A DNA stretch of 49,588 nucleotides, filler included, from Perkinsus olseni (GCA_013115125.1; 2 parts of 2 records of this genome joined end to end with filler, not necessarily neighbours in it); one strand, 5' to 3'; numbered from the whole stretch's first letter, positions 22,178-49,490 are shown. Program-made: numbers and translations. Notes: a model not told the origin generated them from the sequence alone.

Positions 22178-22641
22178 CGACCATCAACGGCGCATGTTGA
22201 GTTTGTAGTTTCATCCGACGCGCTCATCTCATTGTCTGAGTGGCCTTCACAAACTATCGAGATGAATCGAGTTCGTCAGCCCTTCACGGCTTCGTTTCTA
22301 CAGCCACAGCAGCTCCGGCGCGCCGCAGTTGCCGTGCTAGCCATGTGCGAGGCCGTCGATTGAGTGTGGTTGGATTCCTGCGTCGAGGGTGCATCACTGG
22401 CTAAGTAGTTCGCAGAATGCATCTTGCACAGCTGGTGCTCAACTGAATGTCGTACCTATCTTACGAAAGAGACACTTATGGCACAGCGCTATGTATGGCT
22501 AAAGGGCGAGGCTAGACATCCGCAAAAACATATTCATAAGATGTGGACGTGCTCACTCGATGAGTTGATTGATTGTACGGTAAAGCAGCTCCTTCGCATG
22601 CAAGTTTGTTCTCAGTTTTTGCATTTTTCAACTTCGTAATA

Positions 22642-24456
22642 ATGACCGGTTTGGCACTGTCATTGTTGGCAAGCACTATTCTCGGTTCCGCCGTTGGTGT
22701 TGACATGAATGAAGTGATCTCTACTGGTGGTGGATTCGGAAGTCTCGACAGCAGTAAATCCGTACAGGAGGCTGTCGTCACTCTCGAGGATGGTGTATTC
22801 GACGTGAAGGAGATGTCTCGTGACACTCCATTCGCCGTTGTCTCCGGTCTTTATACGGACACCCTCTTCGAGCTCGGCTGGGATCAGCTCCAGTTGGATG
22901 CTGGTTCTGATTATTACTCCGATAAGGACAGGATGTACGCCATGGGCATGTTGGAGTCTTACTTCATCCACGACCGTATCTACAAATTCTGGGAGAACTT
23001 CGACCATAACGATCTTGAGGGCAGCCCAGCTGGTGTGAAGCAGTGGTTCAAGGACCAGTGGGAGTATGTGAAGATTATGACTCAGACCAGCAACGAGACC
23101 TTCTGGCAGAACATGGCTCTCATCGAGGCGCAGGCTGAAGGATACATTGATGGTTATCAGAAGTTCCGCTCTGAAGGTGAAGACATCGACCCTCTCGATA
23201 TGTACATCCTTCAATCATGGGGTGATCTTGGTGATGTTCAAGAAGGCTTCCGTGCTGCCGCCAAACAGCCCGCCGAGGACCTCGCCACAACTCCCGATGC
23301 CGGCGCTGACTTCGAGGCTGGCCCCGGTACTTTGAGTCATGGTAGCTGTACCTCGATGATTCGCCTTATGGATGATGGTGAGATTGCTGTTGCTCACAAT
23401 ACTTGGCGTAGTTATGAAGGTTTCATTCGTGTCTTCAAAAGGAACACTTACCCTAATGGACTCACTGTGACTATGAGCAGCACTCCTGGTCTTATCCACA
23501 GTAAGGATGACTTCTACGTGCAAGAGAACGGCAATCTTATCGCTGTCGAGACAACCAACAGTATGTATGATCAGAAGATCGCTGCTACTTTGGCTACCAA
23601 TCCTGATGCCCGTCACGTTTGCCTCTCGTGGCAGCGTGTTATGTCCTCCATCGTCTTCTCGAGTACCGCTCCTGAGTTCGTGGACAGTTTCGTGGAGCAG
23701 GCCAATTCTGGAACCTACAACAACCAGTGGATGGTTGTTGATGTTAACCGTCATCATGAGGGTGCTACTGATCAAGTTGCTATGATTGTTGAACAGTCCA
23801 TCGGCTACTCCCATAAGGGTGATATCTCCAGCGTTCTCCTCGACAGAGGTTACTGGAAGTCTTATAACATCCCCTACTTCCCCGATGTCTACGAGCAGAT
23901 GGGCTACAATGATTCTGATAAGCAGAGTAGTTATCACCAGTGTGCTCGTAGTGAGATCAGTGATCGTGATGCTCCTCATCTGGCCAACTTGGAAGATGTT
24001 ATGTCCTTCTCGCGGTACAATGAGTATCTCACCGATCCTATTTCTGAGGGATGCGCGAGACTATCCATCGCCTCTCGTTATGATCTGAGTACTCAGGCTA
24101 AGTGCGGTGCTGGTGCTGGACCTCAGGCTTTCGGAGCAATCGATGCCAAGGTTGTGACCTCCAAGGATCTCACCACCGTTCATGCTGTTTCTGGCCCTAC
24201 CAGCGATCCTGAGAACGGCATCCCTGTCTTCCAGTGGTCGACCTCTCCTGTTGATCATATGATCGAACATGTTGGTATGCCCGACCGCTACGACTTCCCT
24301 TGGGTGAGGTTCAATGGTGAGAGTTGGTCTCTGAAGTCCCTCGATGATTCCGCCTGTGATCATGCCGATCATGTCCGTATGAACCCTCCTGCTACCACTA
24401 CAACTACTACTACCACAACAACTACTCCTACCAGCGCTCTTCGTGGTGTCAACTAA
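22642..24456 (+). CDS. Phospholipase B-like (PLBD/Ntn-hydrolase) precursor, intronless, secreted or lysosomal
   Basis: Signal peptide; GWDQL; GSCTSMIR (autocleavage Cys); AHNTW; SKDDFY; ETTN; NSGTYNNQWMVVD; YWKSYNIPYF; GAIDAKV; Thr-rich tail. Confidence 0.93.
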   Translation: MTGLALSLLASTILGSAVGVDMNEVISTGGGFGSLDSSKSVQEAVVTLEDGVFDVKEMSRDTPFAVVSGLYTDTLFELGWDQLQLDAGSDYYSDKDRMYAMGMLESYFIHDRIYKFWENFDHNDLEGSPAGVKQWFKDQWEYVKIMTQTSNETFWQNMALIEAQAEGYIDGYQKFRSEGEDIDPLDMYILQSWGDLGDVQEGFRAAAKQPAEDLATTPDAGADFEAGPGTLSHGSCTSMIRLMDDGEIAVAHNTWRSYEGFIRVFKRNTYPNGLTVTMSSTPGLIHSKDDFYVQENGNLIAVETTNSMYDQKIAATLATNPDARHVCLSWQRVMSSIVFSSTAPEFVDSFVEQANSGTYNNQWMVVDVNRHHEGATDQVAMIVEQSIGYSHKGDISSVLLDRGYWKSYNIPYFPDVYEQMGYNDSDKQSSYHQCARSEISDRDAPHLANLEDVMSFSRYNEYLTDPISEGCARLSIASRYDLSTQAKCGAGAGPQAFGAIDAKVVTSKDLTTVHAVSGPTSDPENGIPVFQWSTSPVDHMIEHVGMPDRYDFPWVRFNGESWSLKSLDDSACDHADHVRMNPPATTTTTTTTTTTPTSALRGVN

Positions 24457-24766: not shown

Positions 24767-24866
24767 NNNNNNNNNNNNNNNNNNNNNNNNNNNNNNNNNN
24801 NNNNNNNNNNTTAATTAATTAANNNNNNNNNNNNNNNNNNNNNNNNNNNNNNNNNNNNNNNNNNNN
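24767..24866. other. Assembly gap with artificial six-frame stop linker
   Basis: 44 N + TTAATTAATTAA + 44 N = exactly 100 bp. Confidence 0.95.
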
Positions 24867-25164: not shown

Positions 25165-26820
25165 ATGCGGATCGGCACTGCTGCTTTGACCTCATGGGCT
25201 CTCCTCCACTCGGCGGCAGCCCGCCTCACTGGTGACAATGTGGACCCCGAAAAGACCGCCATCTTCACCTCGAAGGACATCGAGAAGTACCTCGCCCCCT
25301 CGCCCTTCATGTCCTTCGCCAAGGTCGATGATTTCTCCGACTCCTCGTCCTCTCCCGTCATGAACTGGATCGACAGCTCGATCGCTGGCCTGAAGTCCTG
25401 GGCTGGATCGGAGCTTCTCAGCTGGGGTACCAAGATCGTTGATACTCTTGGTGACCACGTCGAAGGTGCCGACATGTACTACAACTTTATCCCGAGACAC
25501 GTCGCCACCTTAGAGCACGACGGTGAATGGCACAGCTACAACGGTCGTTGCTTCCAAGACATCAAGGTGCGTTCTACCAAACAGGGCGACGGGACTATCA
25601 TGATCGAGGCCGACTATCGCAACGCCGTGTCGTGGACTTGTGCCGAGTACGTCCTCTACGGTAACGCTGCTGACTTCCACATGCAGTACAAGATTCACAG
25701 GGGTACCGAAACCTACAAGTGGACGGCCGATGAGGGCAAGATTAACGTCTTCGACCTCCGAACGTCCTTGGTGGATGCGGCCGAGGGTATCATCAAGACA
25801 GCCGACTTGTTGCTCGGCCGTGATCAGGCCCTGGACTTCGTCGATCACTTCATGAACATCACCTTCGACAAGCGTTCGAACCCTGGCCAGTGCGACATTG
25901 CGGAAGAAGACATTCATCCCGGCGATGTTATCATGGTCACGAATATCCAAGGACAGAGCGCGTCTATTATGTGGGCGGGTGGCTCCATCGCCAGTCACAC
26001 CCTCATGTTCTTGCGCGATCCTGAGACCCAGAAGCTTCACTCTATTGAGAGCTGGGCCGGTGGGGTTCGCAAACTCACTTTCGAGGAGTATCTGAAGGAT
26101 GACGCTGGTTGGTATAACAACGGTGTTCTTGTCCCTCTCAAGGAGGAGCTTCGGGAGAGCTTCGATAACGATGCTGCTTGGAAGAAGTTCACCACTGAGT
26201 TCGAGGGGAATGATTACGGATATAGTAACTTCCTCTTCACTGCCGTGGACTCCCTCAAGGGCAACTACCCCTGCATCCCCATGGACAACTACCAGACCTG
26301 CCTCTCGTGGGAGTTCGTAGAGATCGCCATGGGTTTGGTGGAGCGTGCTCGGCCCGATATGGCCAACCTCCTCTTCCTCGAGGCCTTCAACCATCGCATG
26401 GGTTCTTCCGGACTAGGTCTCAGTGATATTCTCAAGATGGCCGATGCCAAGCTTGAGGGCGGCTCAGCCATGCTTCCTACTATCCCTGAGGAGGACGAGT
26501 GGACTTACCACACCCACCACAACGGAGAGCCCATTGTTGGACCTTCTCGTGTCTGCAGCGCCCTTGTGTGCGAGATGCTCCGTGCTGGAGGTGCTTTAGG
26601 TGATCACGAGCTGTCCTGCTCTGAGTTCACTCCCTTCGATGTCTACAGTATGGATATCTTCACCACCCCTACTTACCAGCTCAAGGGTGACTACGCTATC
26701 GACTTGACCAAGCCCGAAGCTTTGCGCCTCGGCCAGAAACCTGTTACTGACGATATGGCCGAGACCTGCCAGACCATCATCACTGCCGACTCGTACTACG
26801 CTAGAGCTCCACACTGCTAA
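25165..26820 (+). CDS. Secreted permuted papain-like (NlpC/P60-type) protein, paralog 1, intronless
   Basis: Signal peptide; DIHPGDVI, IASHTLM (His), GNDYGY, RVCSALV (Cys), EFTP.D in His-before-Cys permuted order. Resembles, from recall, the uncharacterised At4g27020-like family of plants and protists. Confidence 0.8.
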   Translation: MRIGTAALTSWALLHSAAARLTGDNVDPEKTAIFTSKDIEKYLAPSPFMSFAKVDDFSDSSSSPVMNWIDSSIAGLKSWAGSELLSWGTKIVDTLGDHVEGADMYYNFIPRHVATLEHDGEWHSYNGRCFQDIKVRSTKQGDGTIMIEADYRNAVSWTCAEYVLYGNAADFHMQYKIHRGTETYKWTADEGKINVFDLRTSLVDAAEGIIKTADLLLGRDQALDFVDHFMNITFDKRSNPGQCDIAEEDIHPGDVIMVTNIQGQSASIMWAGGSIASHTLMFLRDPETQKLHSIESWAGGVRKLTFEEYLKDDAGWYNNGVLVPLKEELRESFDNDAAWKKFTTEFEGNDYGYSNFLFTAVDSLKGNYPCIPMDNYQTCLSWEFVEIAMGLVERARPDMANLLFLEAFNHRMGSSGLGLSDILKMADAKLEGGSAMLPTIPEEDEWTYHTHHNGEPIVGPSRVCSALVCEMLRAGGALGDHELSCSEFTPFDVYSMDIFTTPTYQLKGDYAIDLTKPEALRLGQKPVTDDMAETCQTIITADSYYARAPHC

Positions 26821-27799
26821 GCTCTTTGTTCCTATAACACTGCCTCTATTGGAGGCTGTTTGACACTTTGTTTGTCGTCGTGTATTTTCTCGCTTTCTCT
26901 GCGAATGTTGTATTCAACTAACTTGACTTGATCTCTTTTCTGTACGATGAGCCTGTTCAGCCAAACGCTCTTCGTACTGGAGGAATTTCCCCTTTGGACC
27001 ACTGGAAAGGAGCGGCGTTGAGTGTTGTTAGAGTGATGGGCGGGGGCTCCTATGGCGTTAGGGGCTCTACCAAGTCGATCCAACAACCATTCTATCGGAG
27101 ACTTCTCGTTTGGTCGCCAAACTTCGGTCTCCGAGCGCACTTGAAGAGCTTTAAGTTGAGTTCGCCAACCTCCGGGTTAATAACCCGGAATAATATTCCG
27201 ACTGTAGGCTACATCTTTCTATATTACTATCATGTTGCAACTCGATAATAATTGGTGGTTCAATAAGGTAAGTTCATCTTATGGAGTACTCCAGTCAATA
27301 GTGATAGCACACAAATTTTGCTCCTTGCTCACCGTCGGCCGTTTAGGCGCGCTACAGTTGATAAGTGAGCAAGCATGCCGAAGTGGGACATTCCTGAACG
27401 AGGGGATGGCTGAGCACATTAGACGATTGCAGCGTTATGATCGCCAAATGATCGGTATCGCTTCGCGCAAAAAAATTAGTTTTTCTTTGGTTTGCGCTTC
27501 GTGTTCTCCGCGTAATCACACTAACTTAAAACTCTTCACGTGTAACGGAGGTGCATCTTCAAGGTATCGCCTGTTTTCAGATTGGTCCAAGCTCAGCTGG
27601 CCATGACCGAATGGAAGACCAGTCAAGTCCCTCGAAGGTTCGATTATCTCGTGAGATATGGTCATCAGTTTTCACATTTCCGTTGCCGTGACATTCTTGT
27701 TCTCATAACAACTTCGTCGAAGGCAACGATTTAGCGGCTAGTGTCGATCAGTGTCGCCTACTAGTACCGGCTGGCCTAGTTGGCTCAGCTGGATCCGTC

Positions 27800-27938
27800 A
27801 AGCTTAAGGTTTTTTTTCGCTTCCGGCCAGGTGTGATCATCCGATCACGACCAGGGCTGTAGTCCAGCCGACCACAGGTCGCATTGACCGTTGTGGTCAC
27901 CGGCTGTTAGTCGGTGACCACACCTTAAGCTTAAGGTT
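27800..27938. repeat. Short structured element: tandem hairpins bracketed by a 12-bp direct repeat
   Basis: AAGCTTAAGGTT at 27800-27811 and 27927-27938; T-run inside the left end; four stem-loops and a 16-bp palindrome. Confidence 0.55.
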
Positions 27939-28533
27939 GGAGTGAAGTGAATCAACAGCTTCTGCACTGTACGGCCCGGCCCATCCCGGGTGATCTGGCC
28001 AGTCTGGCCGCACCCAGAGCTGCTCTTAGAGTCTTGTACTCCGTCCACGCGACATGCGGTACCGTACTGTGAACTGTGGTACGGACTTTTCCGGCATAGT
28101 TGGGGACTATGATCCTACATTCTATCGTGTAGCATTTCTCACCTTCTGATGCCCAACTCACACAATCTATTTGAGACCCCATTTTCTAGGGATGGCCAGG
28201 TTGAGTTGCCACCAGTTATACCCGGCATAATACACCGGGGTTTGAGCCTGCTGACGCTACACTTCGAGGCAAAGTCAACCAGTGAGCAACATTGGTGGAT
28301 GGTATATTTGACCATCCGCATAATGAAAACATCATCTGCATATGGAAGATGATATTATCACCCAAATTGATGAAATGTAGGCCTATATCCGTGAGAAGTC
28401 GCAGTGCTCTGCTATGAGCTACTCTATGTTATCACTCACAACTCAATCCCCGAGCGCCATGTGCTCACCTGCCGAGAAACAGAGGAGCGAGCGGTAAGCA
28501 TGCTCAAGACCTGATATTTAGTCGAATGGTTCA

Positions 28534-30547
28534 TCAAATGCCTCTCGGCTTCATCTTCAGTTCGAGACCTTCTACTGCTCGAACGAATCGTGTTCGCCCG
28601 TGAACTTTGCCAATATCAGAATTGGCTCTGATGTTATCGAAGTGCCTCAGAATCGTTGCCACGACTATAACACACTCTTTAATGGCGAGGTGTTTGCCGG
28701 GGCACTCGCGGGGTCCCCCGCCGAACGCTAAATGAGAGCGTAGGCGGGCTCTGTTTATGCCTTGGCCGTTAGGAAGGATCCATTGGTCGGGCCTGAGGCA
28801 TAGGAAATCCCGGGTCTCAACACTAGACTCTTATGCTTACTGGAAGGCCGTGCCGCCTTCTTCCTTGCAGATCATCGCCTTATGCAGAAGGGTTGCCACC
28901 ATAGTACCTGGTGGTATCTGCTCACCGGCAAGGGTGGTCTTGCTTATGCCCTCGTGGAGAAGGAAAAATCCGGGCGGTTGCACCTAGACACACGCGAAAA
29001 TCGTTTTCTCCCAAAATGGACAAGGCCCACCCTCAAAGTCTCGATTACGCAAGCCTCAACGAAGAGCAACTCATTCAGATCTTCTCCGTCTTGCGGATCG
29101 TGTCCAATCTCATCCACCTCGGACCTTGCCTTGGCTTGAATATCCGGATAGAGGCAGAGATAGTACAAACACCAGGCGATGGTCATGGCCGTGGTCTCGA
29201 AACCAGCCGCCACGAATCTGAACGATGTGTACAGATGGTAACTATCGTAGACTGACTTCGTTCACCTCGCCGAGTGCGATGAAACTCACATCATTAAATT
29301 TCCTTTCAGTTCTTCGTCAGTCAAATGTTGAAGTTTGTCGAGCAAATCGAGCTTCACCTCTGCTCCTGCTGCTCGCTGGACTCTCCTCTCTTGAATGACT
29401 GTATCCCACATCATATTAAGCTTTTTTAAGCTTCGGTAGAACTGTTGAAGAGCGGGTTCGAAAAAGATCTCAATAAATGCCAACTCACATTCTTTAGCGT
29501 AGCATTGAGGTTCCACGGAAATTTGTCTCGAGTCAACATCGGAAAAGCGCTCAGCTGAGCAACATAGCCACAGCCTTGTAAACCGTCTAGAAACGTCTCC
29601 CAGAGCTCATTTGATTGGCCGGGAGAGACTCCTGATAATTTCGACGGTCACCGCAAGGCTCCGAATGAGATCAGGTCCGATCGGTAGATTCGAGGCTCGG
29701 TCCTCGAGCTGTAGCCTACAGCCTGTAGGCCCATATTGTCTAACGGTGTGAGCTGTACCTTCGGAAGGGAGACAGTTGTAGTCCTTCCCCAAAGTCGTTG
29801 AGCAGATCAAATCGAGTAGAAGGAAGAGACCTCAGTAGGCGGACCTGTAATCCAACGGAGATCTCATCCATACGAAGGCCTACATGAACCCACCATCTTT
29901 GAAGCCGCGTGAGACATTTTTGGTACCATCTCTATCGAGCTCTTCTCGTTGAACGCCGGGGCACATAGCCGTCTATGCCGCTTCCAAATCTCCCCTTCCG
30001 CAGTGAACAAGCCAGATATCGGTATGACATTGTTCTTGTTAGTAGATCTCACATACGCATATGGGCGCTCCTTTAGTACTTGCTGTACAAGTTCAGAGCT
30101 CGATACCACCAGCAGTTGCATACCCATGAAACTGACGGTGAAGAGGTTACGACTAGAACCAGGGCTTTTTTCAGCGCGTGCAGCAGCTGTGAAATATGCT
30201 TACCGGATAGAGTAAATATCACCGTAGGTCTCGGCATAAATCTCGAGTGCTGTGAAAAACTGGTCGAGCGATCTCGGGACGTAGCCCAAGAAGGGAAGAA
30301 ACTGAAAACGGAGAAGATCTCAGCTGAGAAGGCCCACTACTCCGGTAGATCAGATTCACCACCCAAAGCGGTCCAGTACTTGTGGCGAGTTCAGTCCGGA
30401 AGGTCCACCAAAGCGCTCTCGCAGTCTGTTACGTCGTCGATTCGCTCGGTATATCCACAATACGGCAAGTGCCAGTAGGCCCGAGCTCATAACCGCCTTC
30501 TGCCGGGCTATCACCAGTTGCAGAAACCTCGAGATAACGTCTCTCAT
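28534..30547 (-). CDS. Cytochrome P450, ER-anchored, multi-exon; possible frameshift near 29820-29845
   Basis: N-terminal TM and Pro-rich hinge; WKRHRR; I-helix AAGFETTA; ETLR; heme motif FGGGPRECPG (~28696-28725); stop 28534-28536. Confidence 0.93.
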
Positions 30548-30922
30548 ACTTGAAGGATGAACAACTCGTCGAAGCCGATCGTGAACACTGATTCGGTGCA
30601 ATACGTATGCAGTATTCCCGATAAGTCAGCGCCCGCGTGCTGAGGTAAATGAGGGACAAGGAACGTCTGCCGACCGGCCTGGCCGATCCGTCCAGGGTGA
30701 ACACATTTTCTCGTGGACTATGACGAGGGAACATCATAATAGCAAGGGTTCAGACGCAGAGTAAGCAAGGTCCAGCTCAAAGGCTCCCCCGCAAGAACAT
30801 CAGTGATTTATACTCGGGAACACCACTCCGAGTGATATACTCGGGATGACGAGGGTAGCGAAAACTTCAGAAAGTTGCGTTATCCAACTTAGATTGCAAC
30901 GGGTTAGGGGTTCAATAAGTTC

Positions 30923-32331
30923 TCAAAGGACTTCAGGTTTCCTCGCCACGCCAGCATAAATCATGCTGAGGTCGCCTGGCAGCTCTACCGGGTGACCGTC
31001 GAATGCTTGATGTTTATTCTTCATACCGTCGAAGACGAACCGACTGATCTGCCAAAAGTCACACAATTAGTCTAGAGATTAATACATGCTTACGTAGACG
31101 GGAAGGCCTTAAATGGCAGCTGCATGAACTTGGGGGAAATTACGTCGAAAGCTGATGACTCACCCTGTAGAAAACGTCCTCGTAGGCCATGCCTATCCAT
31201 TCCTTCTTTGGCGAACCTGATGTGGAGATAACTTGTCACGAGAGGGATGCGTGTCACGCACGCATTGCGTGAGAGATATACATACTATCATTCTTCCCAA
31301 GGTAAAGTGGGAATCATAGAGAGCAATGAGTGAGTCGTTCATTAAAAAGTTTTTAATAAAAACCGAGACAGTGTATCAGCCTTATTATCTCACGGGCCCC
31401 GTGACACGGGGCCGGTGGCCCGGCAATTCGTGATGCACAAGATACTTCAAGCTGAAGTCTTCAACGCATTCTTAACACATGTCCAGCATTGACGATGAAT
31501 GATCGACTCACGCTTTCTAGGAAGTGAAAACCTCATCAAACCACTCACCCACGACAAATCCAGCGTCACCGAGCAAGCGTTCCATCTCCTCGGGAGTGAT
31601 AAAAAGTCTCCAGTCGTGTGTATCCTCATACATCACCTGGAAGAGGAACTTTCTGGCGGCATCTTTCTAACGTTCATCACCTGGAAGATTTCCTGAGCGA
31701 TCAACCATACGAGAAGGTAAGTCTTGAAGTTCCTTGATATGGTGTCGAATACGACCGCACCGCCGGGCTTGAGTACACGGTAGATCTCGTGCGTAGCCTT
31801 GCGGAGATCCGTGAGATGGTCAAAAACCTCCGATACGATGACACCATCGAAGGTGTTATCGGGAAACGGTATATCATATGCCGATCCAACTTGATAGTGT
31901 AGATTAGGAATATGGCGTCCATGCTGGCGTGCTTGTTCTAGAGATGCCTCACTGATATCAATACCAGTGATATTATAGCCATAGGATAATGCCATCTCTT
32001 CTGTCAATAGACCTCCGCCACATCCCACGTCCAAGTACCTCCCTTGAGAAGGGCTTCTCCCACCTGTTGAAAGATGGCGATGGAAGTAAGGACAGCGAAC
32101 GACGTTGGTCTTTTTCAAGGTATGAACAATCTCTTTCTCATCCCACCAACTGACGTGGTCATAGAGGTTGTTGTCGATACGTGTATCTCTTTCCTTAATA
32201 GCATCGAGCCTGTCGGGGTATGGGGAAGGGTTATACCGTGATCTCGAAAATATCAAGCCAGCAAGAACAGCAGCAGTAGACATAACGAGGAGAGTGAGCC
32301 AAGGGACCATTCCTATAGGTTGCCGCTGCAT
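30923..32331 (-). CDS. UbiG/COQ3-like SAM-dependent O-methyltransferase with N-terminal signal anchor, 4 exons
   Basis: YLDVGCGGGLLTE, GIDIS, FDGVIVSEVFDH, LKPGG..FDTISR, THDWRLFITPEE, DLSMIYAGVARK. Predicted introns 31637-31680, 31217-31548 and 31049-31163. Confidence 0.9.
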
Positions 32332-33285
32332 ATATTCAGCTTCAGGTTAGGGCTTGTTCTCTTTGCAGGGAAGCCTTAGTAGACTCGGCACCCGACAAAT
32401 GCCGGTATGATAAACGCTATCAAGCCGTGCGTGTGCGTGCTGAATATGCAGGCTCGCGCGGGCCAACACAACCTAGGAGATGAACAAAACAGTTCCAATT
32501 GCGAAAGGATAGACGGTTTCATGGACTTACTCAATCAGTACCGCAGAATTGTTATTTCGTGTGCACTATAACTCAGTACAGTGTGGCTATTTGAGACGGG
32601 GCTCCAAGAGAGGTGAGATTGGAGTCGAAAGAGGCTCACTGATAATGTGCGCTACAGCTTACTACTCTAAGCTTAGGACAGCACGTATACTCATGGACGC
32701 TGGTGTAAAGCGGATAGTAAGGTCAGAGCAGCAGTGAAGGTAAATGCCGCGATGATAGTCTAACAGCTGAGTAGTGTGGAACCAGGCTGTAGCTGTTACA
32801 TAGCGCACACTATAATCGTCACTATGTTGTCACTATAGTGCAAGTACTTTCCGAGCTTCATTACTCTGAATCCTCCAACTGCGGCGATTGGGAGTCAGCA
32901 CAGTCGTTGTGCTGACTCCCAATCGCCGCTGTTCCCCTGGTTCAGGCAAACTGGAAGTCTCAGCGAGGTATGCATGTATGTTGTATTGATGTGCAATACA
33001 ACATACATGCTGTACATGGCGTTCCCGCAACCTGGGCATAAGTTGCCAAAACAATTCTAGTTTATTGGGAAACGACTTGGGGAAGTGTTTCTTGGAACAA
33101 GAAATGAAGTGACGGACCTGTCCCACTGTGTGCATGGGTACGTGGGAAGCTTAGTCATTGTTCAATCTCAGGACTGCGTCGAATATCAACTCTGGTTCGA
33201 CGGGGACCTCGAGTTGTGAACCTAGAGGGCCTCTAGTAGGGATACCCTTGTATCAGGTTGTTGTGTTACATTCCTCGATCCCACC

Positions 33286-34905
33286 ATGACCGCTTCCACC
33301 AAATTTTTGGACTGGAGGACTATATTGATGTTATCTCGTCCAGGTTTGTGGTTCCTCACGGTTTGGCTTTACCTTTGGCCCACCGGGGGTCATTGGTATG
33401 TTTTTAAGACATTCCCTTTTTACGCTGGTCTTCTCTTGTCTACGTTACCCTTCAATCTGCTGATGTTTGGTATGAATGATATGGTAGACTATGCTGTGGA
33501 TCAGCTACACGTCCGTAAGGGTAACTATACCTGGGGTGCCAGGGCGAGTAGATCCGAGCTAGCTCAGCTGCCCCCCTTGATGGCCTTCAGTGTCCTATGT
33601 CCAGTGATCATTATCATAGCGGCAACTGGACGCGTGAGGTCAGCTATCTGGGTTCTCGGCTTTCTACTCTCCAATATTCTTTACAACGTGCCTCCTGCGA
33701 CTCTCTCTCGCAAGGGCCCCTGGGAGATACCCTGTATGCTCCTCGGGCTCTCCTGCATCACAATGTTCTCATGTGAAGTGAACAACATCTCTTCGCCGTC
33801 AATCGGTAATATTCTCCACTCATCACTCTCCCTCCTCCCACTCGTCCTCATTCGTTCGCTTAAGGTCTTAAAATGTCTTCCCAAAGGTCACCGAGGACCA
33901 GGGAACTTTCCTGGTCTGTGTGATTTACCGTTTGTACTTCATATCATGTCGCAAATGCCGTTTTTCGCCGTGAATGCAAAAAGCTAAAAATACGTCACTC
34001 GGCTAGTCGTACGAACAAAACGTTCGAATGGAATTGTGATCGTAGGCTGTGATAGCCATACTTCTGAATCTCGTGAAAGCACCGCAAACTCTCCACCGGC
34101 GCAACTTGCATGGTGCAAGTTCCGTGAGCACCTCCCCCTTCCTGCCTCTTGCGTTTGTTTCTTTTTATGTGATTCCTTTAGGTGGATGGATGTTTCACTG
34201 GTTAGCGATGGCGCGGGGCCAACTGTATGGAGAAGTGATCGATATCGACGATGATGCCCAAGTCGGCAAGAACACAACAGCAGTCAAGTTCGGCAAACTT
34301 CGTGCTCAACAGCTTATGTTGGCGCTGACTCTATGTGCAATCCTGGTAAGATATTGACTCACATTGAAGCCTCATATTTATTGGAGCGCTGCCGCGTTGA
34401 CTGATGCTTTTGAGGCGATCTACATTAGTGATGCAGTGCGTTCACTCTCCGTCAGAGAGCCTCCGGCACTTGCTGCTCATGTATAAGAGTGATTACTAGA
34501 TTAAAGAGACCGCGCACGCATAACTCCGATGTGGGAGCAGTGTCGCGATTGAATTGCGAAGATGCAGGCAGTAACGTGAAATTACTCGTGCTCACCACCC
34601 CCGGGTAATCATTGCAGGACTTGTGGGCTACAGAAGGACCTTCTGAGAAGGTTCCCCAACAATATCAGAGCAGTTCCCTTGGGCGTGTGCGGAGGTTAGT
34701 TATGATGGTTTCTCAGGTATGCTACGCTCATCTCGCTTCCGTGTACCTAACTACCTACTACGTCCTCGATGTATTGGTTCAAGTCTGCTCTGCAAGCAAT
34801 AGATGGGGTAGAATACAAGAATACAAACTCGCAATTTTCCGGGTTCAGACCATACTAAGGGTCCTCTATCTGTTCTACGCTTGGCCAAATCGAGTTCTTG
34901 CCTGA
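33286..34905 (+). CDS. UbiA-superfamily prenyltransferase, about 3 exons
   Basis: SRPGLW, first Asp-rich motif NDMVDYAVD..RKG, YNVPP..LSRK, second motif EVIDIDDDAQVGKNTTAVKFG; multiple TM helices. Predicted exons ~33286-33805, 34182-34345 and ~34717-34905. Confidence 0.88.
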
Positions 34906-36212
34906 TGCCAAACCGGGGGTGAACAGGTGACTTGCAGAGTGTAGTTCGGAGCTATGATCGTGTTTCCACCATTAAATGGTGGCGAAATGGCGGCCTCTTC
35001 GAGCGTATCGTCCTGTGTTCAGCATTGCTACTCATTCGTCAAACTATTGTAAGTGAGGAAGACTTCGTTCACATCATGTGCTGCTCGAGTACCGCTGTCT
35101 CACATTTGTTTGTTTCGACCTATGGTAAGTGTTTTCTTGACCGGGACAAGTGGTTTTAATGAGGCCTATGATTTGAACTTCAAATTTTGAAGTAGATCAT
35201 AAACCCTATATATTGCCGCGACAATATTGCAGCGCCCAATGTGAATTATTACAACGTGGTTACAACGAGCCAGGTTCGAGGTGTTGTCCCAATGGCTGAG
35301 TTTTCTGAGTTCTGAAGCCCTATGCGGACTCGAGATCCACAGGCATTGATTCAAACCTGGTTTGATAAATCGCTCTCGACGTTTATTGAATAAACTTTAT
35401 TCAACCCGCACCATGATCCACAAGTGTTGCTCAGATTCCGTACTCATGACAAAGATTCTTAATTCGTGGGTACTATTACTGATCCCAGATTCAGCATTCG
35501 TAAGTATGATATTGTGATATCGAGTTCGTTCAGGTAAGCGCCCCAAAGCCTGCTGATGAACACAGGTCTCCAAAGAGTGACGAAACCTGCTCTTAATCTA
35601 TCCTGCACTGAAGTAGTCACATTCATAGCTATGCAGGAGAAATGCCGGAAGAGCGCATAATGGGACCGACTAGACTGGTATAACATATGACTCTTGGATC
35701 CTATTTTTCAGCACGCGTACACATCTCTAGGACAGCTCTTCCATTTATTCCTCAGGACTGCAGTCTGTCTTTCAACTATGGCGGCTAATGTGTCTAGGTC
35801 CTCACTCTTCCATTATGATTTCTGGGTGTTGGGAGTCGCTCGTGAAACTGTTGAGAGCTCCAACAGAATGAAACTGCGGGAATATTCTCAGCCAGCCTCA
35901 TTAGCACGCAAGTACACAACGGAGCGGCGCTTTCAATGATCCACTTAAAGACTGGATGACATGCTCCCGAAGAGCGAAGAGCAAATTGCAACTAACACGA
36001 TGCGTGTGAAGATGAGTGGCGATGTCACAACCACCTCACACCTACAAGTCACTGTCATCAACGTTGTAGGCGTGCGAAAATGTTGCTTGCGCTATGCTCT
36101 TCGCTCGTGGAGCACAGCCTCGTCGTCCTCATGACTGAGGCAAGCAGTCCTCTGGTTTTCGTGTGAGTGCTCGATTTCAGCGTTTCTCGTTCCTCTCCTC
36201 TCTGTTTCTCGA

Positions 36213-37853
36213 ATGAAAATCCCCACTTGGACGCTCGCCGCCTTCCTCGGGACGGCTCCCACTGCCGCCCGTCTGTTGCGCGACAACATGGACCCTGCCA
36301 ACTCCGCTCTCTTCACTTCGAAGACCATGGAAGACGCCTTCGCTCCCCCAGCCCCTGAGACCATCAACCTGATGGCAGCTGGGGTGTCTCCTGTCACCGA
36401 CTGGATCGACGAGTTCATCGGCTCCTTCAAGTCCTATGCTAGCAGCAAGCTCTTAGGCGTCGCCAGCAAGATCATCGACACTCTCGGTGACAGTATAGAT
36501 GGCAAGGACATGTACTTCAACTTCATCCCTAAGCACGTCGCGACCCTCAAGCCCGACGGACAATGGCACCATTACAAAGGAAGGTGCTTCCAGGATATAA
36601 AGGTGCGTTCGACCCTTCAGTCTGACGGCACCTGCATCATCGAGGCTGACTATCGCAACGCTATCTCCTGGACTTGCGCTGAGTATGTTCTCTATGGCAA
36701 TGTGGACGACTTTCACATGCAGTACAAGATTATCCGGGGTACTGAGACCTACAAGTGGACCGCCAATCACGAGAAGGTTCACGTCTTCGACCTCAGCACT
36801 TCGCTCAGCAACGCAGCCCAAGGCGTCATCAAAACTGCAGACTTCCTCCTCGGCAGGGACGTCGATGAGTTCCTCGAGCACTTCAACCATCTACAGTTCG
36901 ATAAGCGTTCGAATCCTGGTCACTCTGACATTGCGGAAGAAGACATTCATCCTGGTGATGTCGTCATGGTCACCAACTTGCAAGGCCAGAGCGCGGCTAT
37001 CATGTGGGCGGGTGGCTCCATCGCCAGTCACACCCTCATGTTCTTGCGCGAGCCTGAGACCCAGAAGCTTTATGCCATTGAGAGCTGGGCCGGCGGTGTT
37101 CGCAAACTCACCTTCGAGGAGTATCTGAAGGATGACGCTGGTTGGTATAACAACGGTGTTCTTGTCCCTCTCAAGGAGGAGCTTCGTGAGAGCTTCGACA
37201 ATGATGCCGCTTGGAAGAAGTTCACCACTGAGTTCGAGGGCAATGATTACGGATACAGTAACTTCGTCTTCACTTCTGTTGATACTCTCCAGAGCAACTA
37301 CCCCTGCCTCCCCATGGACAACTACCAGACCTGCCTCACATGGGAGTTCGTCGAAGTGACCGTGGGTCTGGTGGAGCGCGTTAAGCCCGACATGGCCCGG
37401 CTGATGTTCGCGCAAGCCCTCAATCACCGTCTGGGTACCGAAGGCCTCACCCTGTCGGAAATCATCAAGGTTGCCGATGCCAATCTCGAGGGTGGCTCAG
37501 CAGCTCTTCCCACTATTCCGGAGCATGATGATTGGACCTATGATACCCATCGCAACGGCAAGCCCGTCGAGGGCCCTAACAGAGTCTGCAGCGCCCTTGT
37601 GTGCGAGATGCTTCGCGCTGGTGGGGCTTTGGGTGATCATGAGCTGTCCTGTTCTGAGTTCACTCCGTGGGACATCTACAGCATGGATATCTTCACCACC
37701 CCTACTTACCAGCTCAAGGGTGACTACGCTATCGACTTGACCAAGCCTGATGCACTGCGCCTCGGCCAGAAACCTGTTACTGACGATATGGCGCAGAAAT
37801 GTGAAAGTATCATCACGGCCGACTCCTATTACAAGAGAGCTAGCGAATGTTAA
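36213..37853 (+). CDS. Secreted permuted papain-like (NlpC/P60-type) protein, paralog 2, intronless
   Basis: 546-aa ORF with signal peptide, collinear with 25165-26820 and carrying the same His/Cys motifs. Confidence 0.8.
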   Translation: MKIPTWTLAAFLGTAPTAARLLRDNMDPANSALFTSKTMEDAFAPPAPETINLMAAGVSPVTDWIDEFIGSFKSYASSKLLGVASKIIDTLGDSIDGKDMYFNFIPKHVATLKPDGQWHHYKGRCFQDIKVRSTLQSDGTCIIEADYRNAISWTCAEYVLYGNVDDFHMQYKIIRGTETYKWTANHEKVHVFDLSTSLSNAAQGVIKTADFLLGRDVDEFLEHFNHLQFDKRSNPGHSDIAEEDIHPGDVVMVTNLQGQSAAIMWAGGSIASHTLMFLREPETQKLYAIESWAGGVRKLTFEEYLKDDAGWYNNGVLVPLKEELRESFDNDAAWKKFTTEFEGNDYGYSNFVFTSVDTLQSNYPCLPMDNYQTCLTWEFVEVTVGLVERVKPDMARLMFAQALNHRLGTEGLTLSEIIKVADANLEGGSAALPTIPEHDDWTYDTHRNGKPVEGPNRVCSALVCEMLRAGGALGDHELSCSEFTPWDIYSMDIFTTPTYQLKGDYAIDLTKPDALRLGQKPVTDDMAQKCESIITADSYYKRASEC

Positions 37854-38508: not shown

Positions 38509-38770
38509 GCATTAGCTACATATTAAGAGTCTTGGTAATACCAAGTTAGTCTGTCTGATTGCACTGCGTGGCCAGATTGAAACGTTCCTTAATTTCTGTG
38601 GCAATGCTACAGAAAGTCTCCATTGGAGTTCGGGTTTGGACTCCTCTTGCCAATATGCACAGTTGGAGACTCTCCAACTGTGCACATTGGCAAGAGTCTA
38701 ACTAAGCCGGAACAACCGGCGTTGGACTATAAACTCTCATACACACACGAAGTTAGTATGTAGCTAATGC
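38509..38770. mobile_element. MITE-like element with 18-bp terminal inverted repeats
   Basis: GCATTAGCTACATATTAA (38509-38526) versus the reverse complement of 38753-38770, GCATTAGCTACATACTAA (17/18). Non-coding, with an internal palindrome of 26-bp arms. No clear TSD. Confidence 0.6.
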
Positions 38771-40591: not shown

Positions 40592-40626
40592 ACACTATAT
40601 TGAACACTATATTGAACACTATATTG
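40592..40626. repeat. 12-bp tandem repeat (ACACTATATTGA, about 3 copies)
   Basis: Read directly from the sequence. Confidence 0.85.
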
Positions 40627-41199
40627 TACGCTAAGTAGCAGCTATGGCCTGGTTTAGTAGTACTCAGCTCTTATACTATCGTAGCTGCACTTACCCCTAC
40701 TGTTACTAAGTACCATTAGTAAATAGGCTGACTTGCGCCTTGCACGCGCGTGCATGGGTATTAGTAAGCTGTGAAGCAGGGCGTTCCTCAGCTCCCCTCG
40801 AGTCCATTTTCACCTTTCCTTGAACCCCGTCTCGAACATTCAGACGGTACTGAGTCACGAAGCCAGTCCTTGCGGACCCTACGCAGGGAGCGTAAGCTGG
40901 CTCCCAGCCAGCTCACCACCGAAACCTATTTCGCACGGCCTCCACTAATCTGCCACTAACTCTAACAATGGTTTGCTAAAGTGACACTTATGGCTTACGG
41001 CCTCCCAGAACCTGGGACCCAGATAGATCGGACACTGAGTCTAAGTGACTTAAGTGCCCTTAGTTCAAGGTTCAAGTCAAGTGGCCCCTGTGGGTCCCCT
41101 TTTTTGATGCGATTCGGATCCCACGGGAATGATGTTTCCGAGGAGTATTGGTCCCGGAAGAGGATCAGACTCCGAGTTCCATTCCGGCGCGAATGACTC

Positions 41200-46800: not shown

Positions 46801-49490
46801 AAAGAGAGAGGGGCCCGGGTACTGACTACTCAGGTTGTCAGTCAACCCGAGTACTGTGAAAGTTGATGGTGGGGGTGGGGGACCCCCGCCATCAACTTCA
46901 CAGCGGAGCTCACCTTCCCGCACGTGTTGACTTTAACGTCGCCTTCCGACCTTCAAAGATGCAACGAAGCTGCTCACCTTGGTCTTTTTGATGAGTTGTA
47001 TGAGCGCCGCTCCGCCTCCTCTGTCGCCGCCCGACATGCCGTCAACTTCATCCATGACCAAGCATGATTTCCTGAACGCGCGCGAAACTACCAAGAAATT
47101 TCCAAGTGACCGCCTTACTGCTTCAGAGAGTAGTTTTTCCCTATCACTGCATTAGTAGCTAGCCCCGACGCCAGGTTGTCCACAGTCGCTTTGTTACGCT
47201 GGTCAGAGGCATTGAACTCCATAGGAATCTAATGTTGGAGCTAGTCGATCACGAGTCGAAAGATGCCCTGCTGAGATACATATCCAAGCTCCTGAGCAAC
47301 GAGCCTGCAGGCGGTGGTCTTCCCAATTCCGGGTGGACCGGACACGAGGACGGCCTTCGCGTTAACATTCTCGGGCACCTGGCAGCATCTAATGATCCTC
47401 AACGGTATCGACGTGCTGCTGTTTTTCCACAGAACGCTTTGCGCTTGCGAGGGCGAAAGTGAAGCCCAGCCCGTCCTCTGGCTCAAGCTGGAACAACAAA
47501 GTCGGGTAGTGGATTCAACGGCACTAGCGAAGAGGGCTTTCGACTTCTGCACAGTAAAGCTCATGAAGATGGCACTGCCGGACACTCCGGTTACTTCCGT
47601 GCCAAAAATGAGAACCCTAGTAGCAACTCACCCCTCGCCCCCGGAACGTCACTGGCTTCTTCTGTCCATGCACGTGTACCTGCACAAACAAACGATCCTG
47701 CAGGAAGCTAATCCCAGCAAGCAGCCTATCACCTTCTCCCAATCTTGCAACCATGTCCGGAGTTTCGTTATCGGTGCGTTATTCCCTACCAAATCCTTCA
47801 GAGTGCGGGGCTTATATCTGACCGCCATCCGAAGGATTTCAAAAGCTGCCACCGTATCAAAGACGCGGAGGTCACTTGTCCGTCCACAAGATGCCTTTAA
47901 CGTCCCCTTTGCTGGTGTTGTCCTTTCCCGATGTTGCCGGCTTGACAGGGTCGATGGTGACCTTGGTTTGTTCCTGAAGGGCGAAGACAGTAAGCAGCCT
48001 GAGGATTCTGGGAACCGAAAAATATCTTATTTTCCGTCAATCACAAGAGCCGACCTGCCGAAGGCCCTATCAACTCATCTATGACTCATAAAGTTCATAG
48101 AATTCACCGTTTTCAAACGACCCCGCGAGAATTCCTCTCGGACAATTTTTCTCAACGGGCGATAGTCTTACTCGCTCTCTTTCTCTCTACAGTGAATGCC
48201 CCTCCCGTTGCTAAGTCAAACCCCCGTCCTACAATCGCACCGCCAGCCTTCATCAACCCCGCCTTCTGAAGCTTTTCGATAAATTCACTCTCCTGCAACA
48301 AACTAGGACCCGGCTTCCCTGCTGCTTTCAACTCCTGGGTTTTTCTGAATCTGAAAGGCAACAAAAATAATCGAGAAACCATCCGAGAAATTCCCCAAGA
48401 AAACTATCGCCGTCACCCGACTGAGCGGGCATCCGCGATAAGTTCGTCCCATGTGTCCCTACTTGGAGCCTTCCTCTATCGGTCGGCCGTCCTCTAAGAC
48501 CGAGCCAACAACAAGATACGTGGTACCTGCAGTAGAGAAGAATGGAAGGGGAGGAACATAGTAATCGAGAATTTTACGTCCTGAGACGGCCGAGGTGACC
48601 TTCGCACCGGCAAGCTTCGCCTTGGTGACAGCCACATCGCGCTGAGGTCATAACACGACAACGGCATCGCTAGGTCCCGATAGCCGACGGATTCGGTGAC
48701 AGGTCAGCTCCCCTCAATTAAGTGGCCTCAGGATCCGACGGAGTCCCACTCGTTGACGGGAGCCATGGTTCTTTTGCAGTGTGCGTAATGCAATGACCGA
48801 CAGACACGAAATAGGTTCAGGAGGCGAAAAGCATGAGAATGATCGCGGTACCGGAAGAAACGTTTTGTGATTTACGGTGAAACTACTCCGGCGAGGCGGC
48901 GAGTGAGAATTTGCTCATCAAAATGTCTCTGATTTTGAAGACTTCAACGATTTCTCACGCTTCAAACGATAACCACCGCAGACAGAGGTAACTCGATAAC
49001 AGAAGCGGTGTATCCATCGCTGAGCTCACCTCCAGCTGCTCCAAGTTGCCGGTGAAAACCAGGGTCATGCCACTAAAAGGTTTGTCGTTCGTCACGGCCG
49101 GCGGAGGAGACTTCGTCGTCGATTTACGAGGCTTCGGTGAAGCTCCTGACAACCGCAAACATCGCTCTCTAAAGCACACACGCCGTGGACGAGTTTGACT
49201 TGCTCATCATAAAAAAAGGGACCCGTCTCCCACCTTTCTTTGCCTTCGATGTTGACGGTGATTTAGGCTGCGGGCTTCTATGCTGCTTCCGTGCCTTCGC
49301 CGCAGACTTCGGTGGAGTATCCGGGGCGCTCTTCGGCGAGTCTGAGTTGGACCGATTCGAGAGGACAACGCCCCAGCAGAGCGATCTCACGCTTCCTCTT
49401 CTTCGTCGACTTTGGTGGTGCTGAGCCTTCGTCGGAGCTACTCCCCAGAGATATCGCATTAGCAGCCTTCGCACTACCTGCCGTCAACAC
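43831..49490 (-). CDS. RFC1: Replication factor C subunit 1, multi-exon, probably 5'-partial (start at or beyond the window edge)
   Basis: BRCT domain (FSGMTLVFTGNLE, AGAKVTSAVS); YKPRTLKDLVGN; Walker A GPPGIGKTT; EFNASD; Walker B MDEVDGMSGGDRGG; PVICICNDR; RFC1 C-terminal DYDLIPLLMQQNY, FPQWLGANS, DAKTKSALTR. Confidence 0.95.
45258..45439. repeat. 26-bp minisatellite, about 7 copies, inside an RFC1 intron
   Basis: Consensus GTCGAAGCGTGGAAGATACGGTGGAG, with variants ending GCTAAT. Confidence 0.9.

Follow-up and report, generated by a model that had tools for sequence, protein, structure and literature searches.

Three unrelated tailoring-type enzymes lie side by side in the shellfish parasite Perkinsus olseni, within a stretch of DNA of 49,588 nucleotides, filler included (hereafter the window), and the question they raise is whether this alveolate parasite carries a biosynthetic gene cluster or whether duplicated genes have come to resemble one. 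A sequence-only reading had taken the trio, a cytochrome P450, a UbiG-like methyltransferase (MT) and a UbiA-family gene, for an endoplasmic reticulum (ER)-localised pathway leading to a specialised prenylated or terpenoid lipid.

Layout of the Locus

All three genes are present in the window at the positions given below and are spliced, with GT-AG joints in public RNA contigs for 13 of 13 introns, and runs X1, X21, and X2 contain RNA contigs of all three. The P450 ATG follows the MT stop after 375 bp, in keeping with the proposed gap of less than 400 bp. The MT and UbiA genes are divergent at an ATG-to-ATG distance of 954 bp, as anticipated, but the promoter suggested for this spacer is not a simple shared one, since the spacer holds a dispersed repeat of about 275 bp (32568..32845; self-BLAST with 76–78% identity and alignment). 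A second, inverted copy lies at about 40593–40855, and numerous loose RNA-contig ends fall at 32560–32614, in the region of the spacer repeat. The repeat search also identified two near-perfect DNA hairpins (32877..33010), one with 26-nt arms (32877–32933) and one with 17-nt arms (32972–33010), whose miRNA-like matches in Rfam were all sub-threshold. Six 22-nt scars are found within 29.7–35.4 kb, four of them inside introns of the trio genes.

The trio sits between a pair of paralogous flanking genes on the same (plus) strand. The left gene (25165..26820) is a single open reading frame (ORF) of 551 aa and shares 73.6% amino acid and 80% nucleotide identity with the right gene (36213..37853, 546 aa). 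As a lead to the function of the left gene, its atlas cluster carries Peptidase_C92 on 13% of members. A Pfam scan of ORFs in the window showed no scaffold-forming enzyme. The sequence-only reading had itself named large dispersed families as a ground for expecting adjacency by chance, and all three genes do come from dispersed or tandem families, each multi-copy in Perkinsus and none single-copy.

The P450 Gene Is a Transcribed Pseudogene

The P450 lies on the minus strand (28534..30547), was recognized by Pfam p450 in three exon ORFs and belongs to a Perkinsus-specific CYP family. It comprises nine exons (30547–30380, 30301–30204, 30131–29894, 29844–29759, 29631–29489, 29441–29290, 29217–29031, 28983–28841, and 28792–28534). 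All eight introns are seen in RNA contigs, seven of them in both X1 and X21 and the 127-nt intron only in X21. The spliced length of 1474 nt is no multiple of three, and with the eight introns removed the first stop falls at codon 205, upstream of the I-helix, ExxR and heme Cys; when intron 4 is retained, a stop appears at codon 203. The frameshift was located by tblastn to 29816..29824 (minus strand) in exon 4, which is about 50 nt short relative to the paralogs, and the frame switches at this point with five full-length paralogs (P0138, P0139, P0140, P0142, and P0143). Correspondingly, the RRL..FPWN span measures 277 nt, as against 108–111 codons in seven of 10 paralog models, the remaining three giving 119 codons, 81 codons and no measurable value. 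RNA contigs of X1 and X21, which stem from two studies, cross 29816–29824 with no indel listed. RNA contigs, which rare isoforms could escape, showed no mRNA with a reading frame open from the N-terminus through to the heme Cys, and alternative splice sites near intron 3 yield a few open frames on paper, all shorter than the paralogs and none among the RNA joints. The gene is thus a transcribed, frameshifted pseudogene and no intact enzyme gene, so that of the three adjacent tailoring enzymes originally envisaged two are left intact.

Downstream of the frameshift, AAGFET (I-helix AxxxT), ETLR (ExxR) and FGGGPRECPG (FxxGxRxCxG) are intact in the DNA. Because both halves on either side of the lesion are stop-free and all catalytic motifs persist, the lesion is a recent one, and not long ago the trio may still have been functional. 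The N-terminal anchor is weak, with no 19-residue window reaching a KD of 1.5.

Phylogenetically, the P450 sits in a Perkinsus-only clade, and Perkinsus clusters make up 13 of the 30 family matches listed in a search that covered models of 445–1418 aa. Its sister is P0136 (KAF4690087; 74% identity, SH-aLRT 100), which directly follows the MT paralogs KAF4690085/86 on one 136-kb P. olseni contig and whose public model likewise changes frame and has no K-helix ExxR. The public 810-aa model P0124, a fused MT-P450 whose origin the locus reveals, was dropped as independent support for the lesion because its contig, at 24,722 bp, is exactly as long as the one to the right of the N gap in the window.

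A Membrane-Anchored UbiG-Like Methyltransferase

The MT (30923..32331, minus strand) is a membrane-anchored UbiG-like SAM methyltransferase of 305 aa encoded by four exons (32331–31681, 31636–31549, 31216–31164, and 31048–30923), and its spliced model is identical to the NCBI P. olseni protein P0004. Its introns are covered by RNA contigs completely in X1, X21, and X2 and for two of three in X11. Exon 1 alone scores 105.1 bits on TIGR01983 (cut-off 102.95), and the best PDB match is E. coli UbiG (4kdc, E=2.9e-19). The metal-binding motif of UbiG/COQ3-type O-methyltransferases is ExxEH; at this position the window MT has EVFDH, its orthologs EVLDH and most clade members DVLEH. In a tree with one long canonical-UbiG outgroup (LG+G4, no mixture model), the MT groups with a clade including actinobacterial and other non-proteobacterial UbiG-like proteins, its nearest rows being transmembrane (TM)-anchored proteins and one chytrid protein. 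The family is tandem-arrayed in three Perkinsus species, the MT being 81% identical to its sister, and Perkinsus clusters account for 10 of the 120 matches listed in a relatives search that covered models of 115–368 aa. A metagenome scan yielded six loci only, all distant, and a plasmid search nine MT-like records, one of which was examined and had uninformative neighbors.

NCBI names the protein [quoted passage not shown] It carries an N-terminal TM segment at residues 9–27 (KD 2.02), and its P. marinus ortholog C5LW52 is predicted to be in the ER, with a signal peptide and a transmembrane segment (PMC13623125, supplement S9). Mitochondrial targeting was thus not recognized, despite detection of the ortholog as protein in a mitochondria-enriched fraction in the P. 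marinus proteomics tables. The MT is probably ER-anchored and, by analogy to UbiG, probably acts at the membrane to O-methylate a lipophilic catechol or phenol. The expected anchors without presequences accordingly hold for the MT and for the polytopic UbiA described below, and fail at the weak P450 anchor.

An Uncharacterised Clade of UbiA Prenyltransferases

The UbiA gene (33286..34905, plus strand; Pfam and RNA contigs) encodes an intramembrane prenyltransferase of the UbiA superfamily of 290 aa in three exons (33286–33805, 34182–34345, and 34717–34905). Both introns are found in all four RNA runs, and one X2 contig covers 33274–35114 in spliced form, starting 12 nt before the ATG. The protein contains NDxxDxxxD (64–72), RK (at 77), YN (at 133) and DxxxD (194–198); N64, D65, D68, D72, K78, Y133, and D194 are invariant in a 58-sequence alignment. 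It is polytopic, and its conserved core with the family motif starts at residue 17, which leaves no room for a presequence. A paralog on another contig, P0165, is 93% identical; its predicted model (pLDDT 94.7) best matches the Archaeoglobus fulgidus UbiA homolog 4tq4 (Z 19.6, rmsd 3.7, 255 aligned), and a sequence search of the PDB gave chance matches only.

On the COQ2 model TIGR01474, a bacterial model and hence a proxy, P0165 had no match at E<=1e-4 and P0002 reached 22 of 275 bits. P0165 scored 32, 48, and 60 bits on PRK13105, PRK12875, and PRK13595, below the cut-offs of 217, 205, and 248. We take these three to be models of CrtEb/LyeJ-type lycopene elongases, consistent with the PRK13105 matches in the control genomes of C. 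glutamicum, H. volcanii, and D. radiodurans. Judged by sequence, the protein is not COQ2 but a member of an uncharacterised clade whose closest models are those of the CrtEb/LyeJ type. Together with the TM anchor of the MT and the ER prediction for its ortholog, this bears out the view that the genes are not canonical mitochondrial COQ2/COQ3.

By family analogy, the enzyme most likely ionises a prenyl diphosphate with its two Asp motifs and Mg2+ and prenylates a small acceptor. Among its relatives (40 of 150 scanned), two are fused to isochorismate synthase and two to LRRs, and none to an MT or P450. The isochorismate-synthase fusions tentatively suggest a chorismate-derived aromatic acid or a scavenged quinone head as the leading candidate for the acceptor. 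A carotenoid-type alkene, as in CrtEb/LyeJ, is unlikely, as is an activity outside all of these categories, and terpene-synthase activity rather less likely still. The relatives of this CrtEb-related clade that carry the isochorismate-synthase fusion are of haptophyte type. A plasmid search with UbiA returned none, and a literature search including few subscription papers retrieved no publication on a Perkinsus UbiA prenyltransferase and none treating UbiA, LyeJ and CrtEb together.

Linkage in Perkinsus and in Bacterial Relatives

Linkage within Perkinsus was judged from accession order and contig sizes, the other assemblies being fragmented. At a second P. olseni locus, the sister MT array adjoins the sister P450, which gives the MT-P450 pair the look of a single, old segmental duplicate. 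Of the repeated or fused P450-UbiG-UbiA arrangements that had been suggested as a check, a repeat of MT next to P450 is found, and the linkage of UbiA to either recurs at no other Perkinsus locus that could be placed. The P. olseni UbiA paralogs lie on contigs of 2.4, 12.4, and 1.4 kb, and none of the MT or P450 accessions looked up adjoins them. In P. chesapeaki, the families are spread over five contigs of different length: one with the MT array (22,004 bp), two with a UbiA each (80,816 and 25,884 bp) and two with P450s (9,004 and 49,631 bp). For the P. marinus MT ortholog, one of six neighboring ids was found in the available part of the proteomics tables, which list detected proteins only, and this accession neighbor is a pyruvoyl-tetrahydropterin synthase.

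Around bacterial UbiA relatives (the best 80 of 388 loci, 1766 ORFs, biased to the bacterial side of the family because the search alignment was narrow and bacterial-like), no P450 was found at any of the 80 loci and no isochorismate synthase among the 1766 ORFs. A single, distant MT scored 50 bits as against 223 for a true subfamily member, and no crt gene occurred among the 30 recurrent neighbors scanned. With a positive control run, the MT subfamily was absent at E<=1e-30 from all 44 UbiA-bearing bacterial genomes searched, mostly incomplete MAGs. In trees computed under LG+G4 without a mixture model, the UbiAs of Perkinsus cluster together with rows from EukProt and haptophytes.

Origin of the Locus

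Since the P450 is broken and all three genes are extra copies from multi-gene families, a by-product of rearrangement is likelier than a working biosynthetic cluster. The trio is probably a chance assembly of paralogs, and we consider it reasonably likely that the locus was patched together from duplicated genes in a stretch prone to rearrangement, with no co-selected three-step pathway. MT and P450, which are adjacent at both loci, would have been duplicated together from, or as the sister of, a locus combining a tandem MT array with a P450. A more recent UbiA copy may then have landed head-to-head with the MT, in the observed layout of a dispersed repeat between the two and a block between two tandem paralogs. 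Finally, the P450 lost about 50 nt, leaving the transcribed pseudogene seen today. The two intact genes, MT and UbiA, probably act independently of each other at the ER membrane.

The unequal sister divergences (MT 81%, P450 74%, and UbiA 93% to P0165) count in favor of a patchwork. Against it, MT-P450 adjacency has been kept through about 20–25% protein divergence at two loci, which selection could explain, and UbiA and the UbiG-like MT form a chemically matched pair. Plant clusters, too, are thought to assemble by young paralogs relocating into repeat-rich regions.

These points lead to the alternative that survives best, although we regard it as doubtful: an ER metabolic cluster, either nascent or in recent decay, in which UbiA would prenylate an aromatic acid, the intact P450 would have hydroxylated it and the MT would O-methylate the hydroxyl so formed. 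The product would be a non-respiratory prenyl-methoxy-phenol or quinone, and the P450 step would since have been lost or be supplied in trans by one of the many paralogs. Three ER-type enzymes of matching chemistry, the MT-P450 link at two loci, the intact P450 motifs, transcription of all three genes in X1, X21, and X2, the MT ortholog found as protein in the P. marinus tables and the isochorismate-synthase fusions pointing to an aromatic acceptor agree with such a cluster, which has to contend with a dead P450 whose sister model also looks broken, UbiA linkage at no other placed locus, relatives without co-occurrence or fusion, and the dispersed repeat in the spacer. Likewise unlikely is an ER pathway being assembled by paralog relocation in a transposon-scarred region, UbiA prenylating an aromatic acid and the MT O-methylating it to the same kind of product. 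Of the ER-localised pathway originally proposed, the probable ER anchoring of the MT stands; a working three-enzyme cluster is not supported, given the P450 pseudogene and a UbiA linkage placed nowhere else.

It is improbable that the trio is a carotenoid-tailoring module acting on host or dietary carotenoids. The best NCBIfam matches of UbiA are PRK13595, PRK12875, and PRK13105, PMC5401885 indicates that crtEb/ubiA, P450 and ubiE can sit together in actinobacterial crt clusters (CrtEb, P450 and methyltransferase), and carotenoids are taken up by P. marinus (PMC5573998). However, the matches reach 32–60 bits against cut-offs of 205–248, the recurrent bacterial neighbors include no crt gene (0 of 30 from 80 loci), the P450 is dead, and PMC5573998 reports P. 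marinus phytoene-desaturase candidates as unexpressed and growth as unaffected by carotenoids.

Very improbable, too, is that UbiA and MT serve as the canonical COQ2 and COQ3 of ubiquinone synthesis in the parasite, as the NCBI name, the narrowly passed UbiG cut-off, the E. coli UbiG match and the mitochondria-enriched fraction would suggest. P0165 lacks a TIGR01474 match and P0002 stays at 22 of 275 bits, the MT combines a TM anchor and an ER prediction with a place in the non-proteobacterial UbiG-like clade, and a further P. marinus group (C5L0G8/C5KSN0), named "3-demethylubiquinone-9 3-methyltransferase," migrates with a profile of its own, although it is itself predicted to be cytoplasmic (PMC13623125). 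A relic of a bacterial operon from recent horizontal transfer is largely refuted: UbiA and MT have bacterial relatives at roughly 30–45% identity, but the tree test that had been called for rejected a clade of Perkinsus UbiAs with 10 GTDB bacterial rows (AU p=0.0099; LG+G4, group named after an earlier tree was seen), the MT is closest to TM-anchored proteins and to one from a chytrid, the clade of the P450 holds Perkinsus sequences only, the trio is interrupted by 13 introns, and the searches turned up no bacterial operon that combines these partners.

As a cluster, the locus is probably unimportant; it shows how the look of a biosynthetic cluster can arise from young paralogs, a pseudogene and repeats. 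Worth keeping are the UbiA clade common to Perkinsus, other protists and scattered bacteria, for which the isochorismate-synthase fusions provide a clue open to testing, and the UbiG-like, ER-anchored family that forms arrays in three Perkinsus species under the annotation of mitochondrial COQ3. Should UbiA and MT catalyse successive steps, Perkinsus would make an undescribed prenyl-lipid product, and the use of its isoprenoid supply would become testable; were the ER-pathway reading true, the locus would be a snapshot of the birth and partial decay of a cluster in an alveolate parasite.

Comparison With Known Systems

In fungal and plant meroterpenoid clusters, unrelated tailoring enzymes lie side by side. 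Unlike eukaryotic metabolic gene clusters, the window trio has a pseudogene member, no scaffold-forming enzyme seen and a three-way linkage found nowhere else. The sequence-only reading knew of no such cluster described in perkinsids or alveolates; a biosynthetic cluster of an alveolate, the Symbiodinium MAA cluster, is in print (PMC6001144) and shares with the trio unrelated tailoring enzymes side by side and one divergent pair, with different chemistry.

The CrtEb/LyeJ lycopene elongases, the best family matches of the window UbiA, share with it the N-terminal SRPxxW, PxNLxxxGxND, DxxxD...GxxTTAV and the UbiA fold. In contrast to them, the window UbiA is eukaryotic and intron-containing, scores far below the three cut-offs, forms a separate clade in trees, is fused to isochorismate synthase in some relatives and has bacterial relatives without crt among the recurrent neighbors. 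UbiA/COQ2, MenA/UBIAD1, and the A. fulgidus UbiA homolog (4tq3/4tq4) resemble it in fold (Z 17–19.6) and in the two Asp-rich motifs, described in PMC7839719, and differ at 9–17% identity in structural alignments, the window UbiA having neither a TIGR01474 match nor a presequence. With E. coli UbiG and eukaryotic COQ3, the MT shares the Class I SAM motif, the WWD...LxxxNxxR segment and the HD/THD motif, whereas it is anchored by an N-terminal TM segment with a PDRL...IDN motif, reads EVFDH in place of the EMLEH of UbiG, belongs to a family that stands in tandem arrays in three Perkinsus species and is predicted to reside in the ER.

Gene Models and the P450 Lesion

The trio lies entirely to the right of the N gap (two N runs, 24767–24866), within a 24,722-bp contig, and consists of a cytochrome P450 (minus strand, 30547–28534), a UbiG-like methyltransferase (MT; minus strand, 32331–30923) and a UbiA-superfamily prenyltransferase (UbiA; plus strand, 33286–34905). 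The spacing described in a sequence-only reading, which had proposed a biosynthetic gene cluster, was borne out (measured gaps of 375 bp and 954 bp). Contigs from four public runs (one RNA on record, two presumed RNA, one of unrecorded kind) were placed on positions 27000–36200; GT-AG intron joints occur in contigs of all four, and all three genes are transcribed. These contigs reveal eight introns in the P450, three in the MT and two in UbiA. The spliced MT model (305 aa) is identical to the public protein P0004, an MT exon matching an NCBI Perkinsus olseni protein at 100% identity, and the UbiA exons splice into an open frame of 290 aa. The first MT intron (44 nt) is flanked by a perfect 14-nt direct repeat (31631–31688).

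The window P450 is a dead, broken gene. With all eight observed introns removed, its transcript measures 1474 nt from the ATG, which is not divisible by three, and the first stop falls at codon 205 (codon 203 if intron 4 is retained). The alignments of five full-length paralogs hold one frame as far as 29824 and resume in a different one from 29816. A span between two conserved anchors measures 277 nt versus 108–111 codons in seven of ten paralog models (the remaining three give 119, 81 and no measurable value), so about 50 nt are missing. Contigs from sequencing runs X1 and X21, belonging to two studies, span the site with no indel listed, their strain possibly being that of the assembly. Since both halves are free of stops and retain undamaged I-helix, ExxR and heme motifs, the lesion is recent. 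A public model of 810 aa, P0124, joins MT and P450 into a single protein and follows the wrong frame at the lesion; it probably derives from the same contig and was discounted as independent support.

Gene Families, Linkage and Local Anatomy

Each of the three genes is one copy of several from a multi-copy family, a circumstance that the sequence-only reading had itself set against a cluster. Perkinsus clusters account for 13 of 30 P450 matches (nine P. olseni, three P. chesapeaki, one P. marinus) and form one clade, where P0136 (74%) is sister to the window P450. Ten Perkinsus clusters are found among the 120 MT matches listed, with tandem arrays in P. olseni (KAF4690085/86), P. chesapeaki (KAF4656609-11) and P. 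marinus (EER01003/04). UbiA paralogs are present in P. olseni (P0165 and P0315 at 93%, P0171 at 62%) and P. chesapeaki (two). With multi-copy families behind all three genes, and some 200 windows of this genome alone having been scanned, a thematically matched neighbour by chance is not surprising, and a patchwork of genes without a joint pathway is the reading we consider fairly probable.

A nascent or decayed cluster is an unlikely alternative, on which the search for repeated arrangements bears in two ways: the MT–P450 pair recurs at a second P. olseni locus, whereas the UbiA link was found at no other locus that could be placed. P0136 is KAF4690087, directly after the MT array on one 136-kb contig, so that MT–P450 adjacency is present twice in P. 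olseni; as the two MTs and the two P450s are each sisters or nearly so, the pairs are best read as one event, and the pair has been duplicated. The model of P0136, too, shifts out of frame and is without the K-helix ExxR, as judged from the protein only. The P. olseni UbiA paralogs lie on other contigs, some short, and no second link to MT or P450 was found on the indirect evidence of paralogs' contigs and accession neighbours in these fragmented assemblies. In the fragmented P. chesapeaki assembly, the three families are spread over five different-sized contigs. In accession order, the MT ortholog of P. marinus has a pterin synthase as one neighbour.

The local anatomy of the trio points to rearrangement: the block lies between two same-strand paralogs (25165–26820 and 36213–37853, both plus; ~550-aa single ORFs, 74% identical), its spacer contains a repeat and hairpins, and 22-nt scars fall in the block or just beyond it. 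The MT and UbiA do diverge across 954 bp, as the sequence-only reading had it in suggesting a bidirectional promoter, but this spacer itself holds two hairpins and a ~275-bp dispersed repeat (32568–32845; second copy 40593–40855). In RNA runs, contigs pile up on this repeat to a very high summed depth and many have loose ends there; it may be SINE- or MITE-like. Similar long DNA hairpins lie at 38644–38696 and 46854–46903. Exact 22-nt forward-inverted-forward scars occur at 29708, 31342, 31390, 34631, 35171, 35381, 38450, 39664, 41226, 41757 and 4171, 10 of 11 to the right of the gap and six between 29.7 and 35.4 kb. The flanking pair has no Pfam match and may, as a lead only, encode permuted papain-like enzymes; in the Atlas the pair resembles unnamed clusters of plants and ciliates, in one of which 13% of members carry Peptidase_C92. 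A spliced transcript (27207–28190, plus; intron ~27268–27580) carries only a short ORF and a repeat-like 3' part; its 9-nt loose 5' end at 27206 resembles the Perkinsus spliced leader. Left of the gap lie a retroelement integrase ORF (17–2356, plus) and an intronless phospholipase B gene (22573–24456, plus).

The UbiA Clade and Its Descent

The value of the locus lies mainly in its UbiA clade, which is uncharacterised. A paralog structure model has the UbiA fold (pLDDT 94.7; Z 19.6, rmsd 3.7 to 4tq4), and the window UbiA carries both family Asp motifs, as described in PMC7839719. The COQ2/UbiA family model gave no match, and the best models (PRK13595, PRK12875, PRK13105) all score far below cut-off. 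We take these three to be CrtEb/LyeJ-type models, an assignment which the PRK13105 matches in C. glutamicum, H. volcanii and D. radiodurans fit. A profile search (E≤0.001) returned 1130 representatives, with NDxxDxxxD kept in 142 of the 150 listed. Among 40 relatives scanned, two are fused to isochorismate synthase (the two 50–56% identical), two to LRRs (P0195 and P0200, metagenome proteins) and none to an MT or P450, so the fused P450–UbiG–UbiA arrangements looked for did not emerge. One isochorismate synthase fusion clusters with a Chrysotila (haptophyte) protein, and these fusions offer the strongest hint at what substrate the clade uses; their handles, all outside the window, are P0182, P0209 and P0317, one of them from Chrysotila.

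The bacterial UbiA relative is an orphan gene. Around the best 80 of 388 loci there was no P450, no isochorismate synthase and one distant MT, and the most recurrent neighbour family occurred at no more than 11 (antisense ORFs over UbiA excluded). The MT subfamily was found in 0 of 44 bacterial genomes with a UbiA relative, the same profile recovering a Rhodococcus plasmid member (E=3e-67) as positive control. In trees built on biased, partly unnamed sampling, Perkinsus UbiA sits beside EukProt and haptophyte rows, and a clade uniting it with the GTDB bacteria is rejected (AU p=0.0099), which goes against a recent horizontal transfer from bacteria. An operon relic, carotenoid tailoring and canonical CoQ synthesis share the little probability that remains.

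Comparison With Known Systems

We infer the order of duplications, a location at the ER and what reactions the two intact enzymes catalyse. The sequence-only reading knew of no such cluster in perkinsids or alveolates; PMC6001144 provides a precedent for a biosynthetic cluster in an alveolate, though with different chemistry. The P. marinus MT ortholog (C5LW52/C5KJI6) has been found in complexomes of whole cells as well as of mitochondria-enriched material and is predicted to be ER/transmembrane, while a second same-named group (C5L0G8/C5KSN0), a candidate canonical COQ3, migrates differently and is predicted to be cytoplasmic (PMC13623125). The window MT scores narrowly above the UbiG model cut-off, and its best alignment is with E. 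coli UbiG; unlike that enzyme, it bears a TM anchor and sits in a DVLEH-type clade whose other members include TM-anchored proteins of no given name, one protein from a chytrid and several from actinobacteria.
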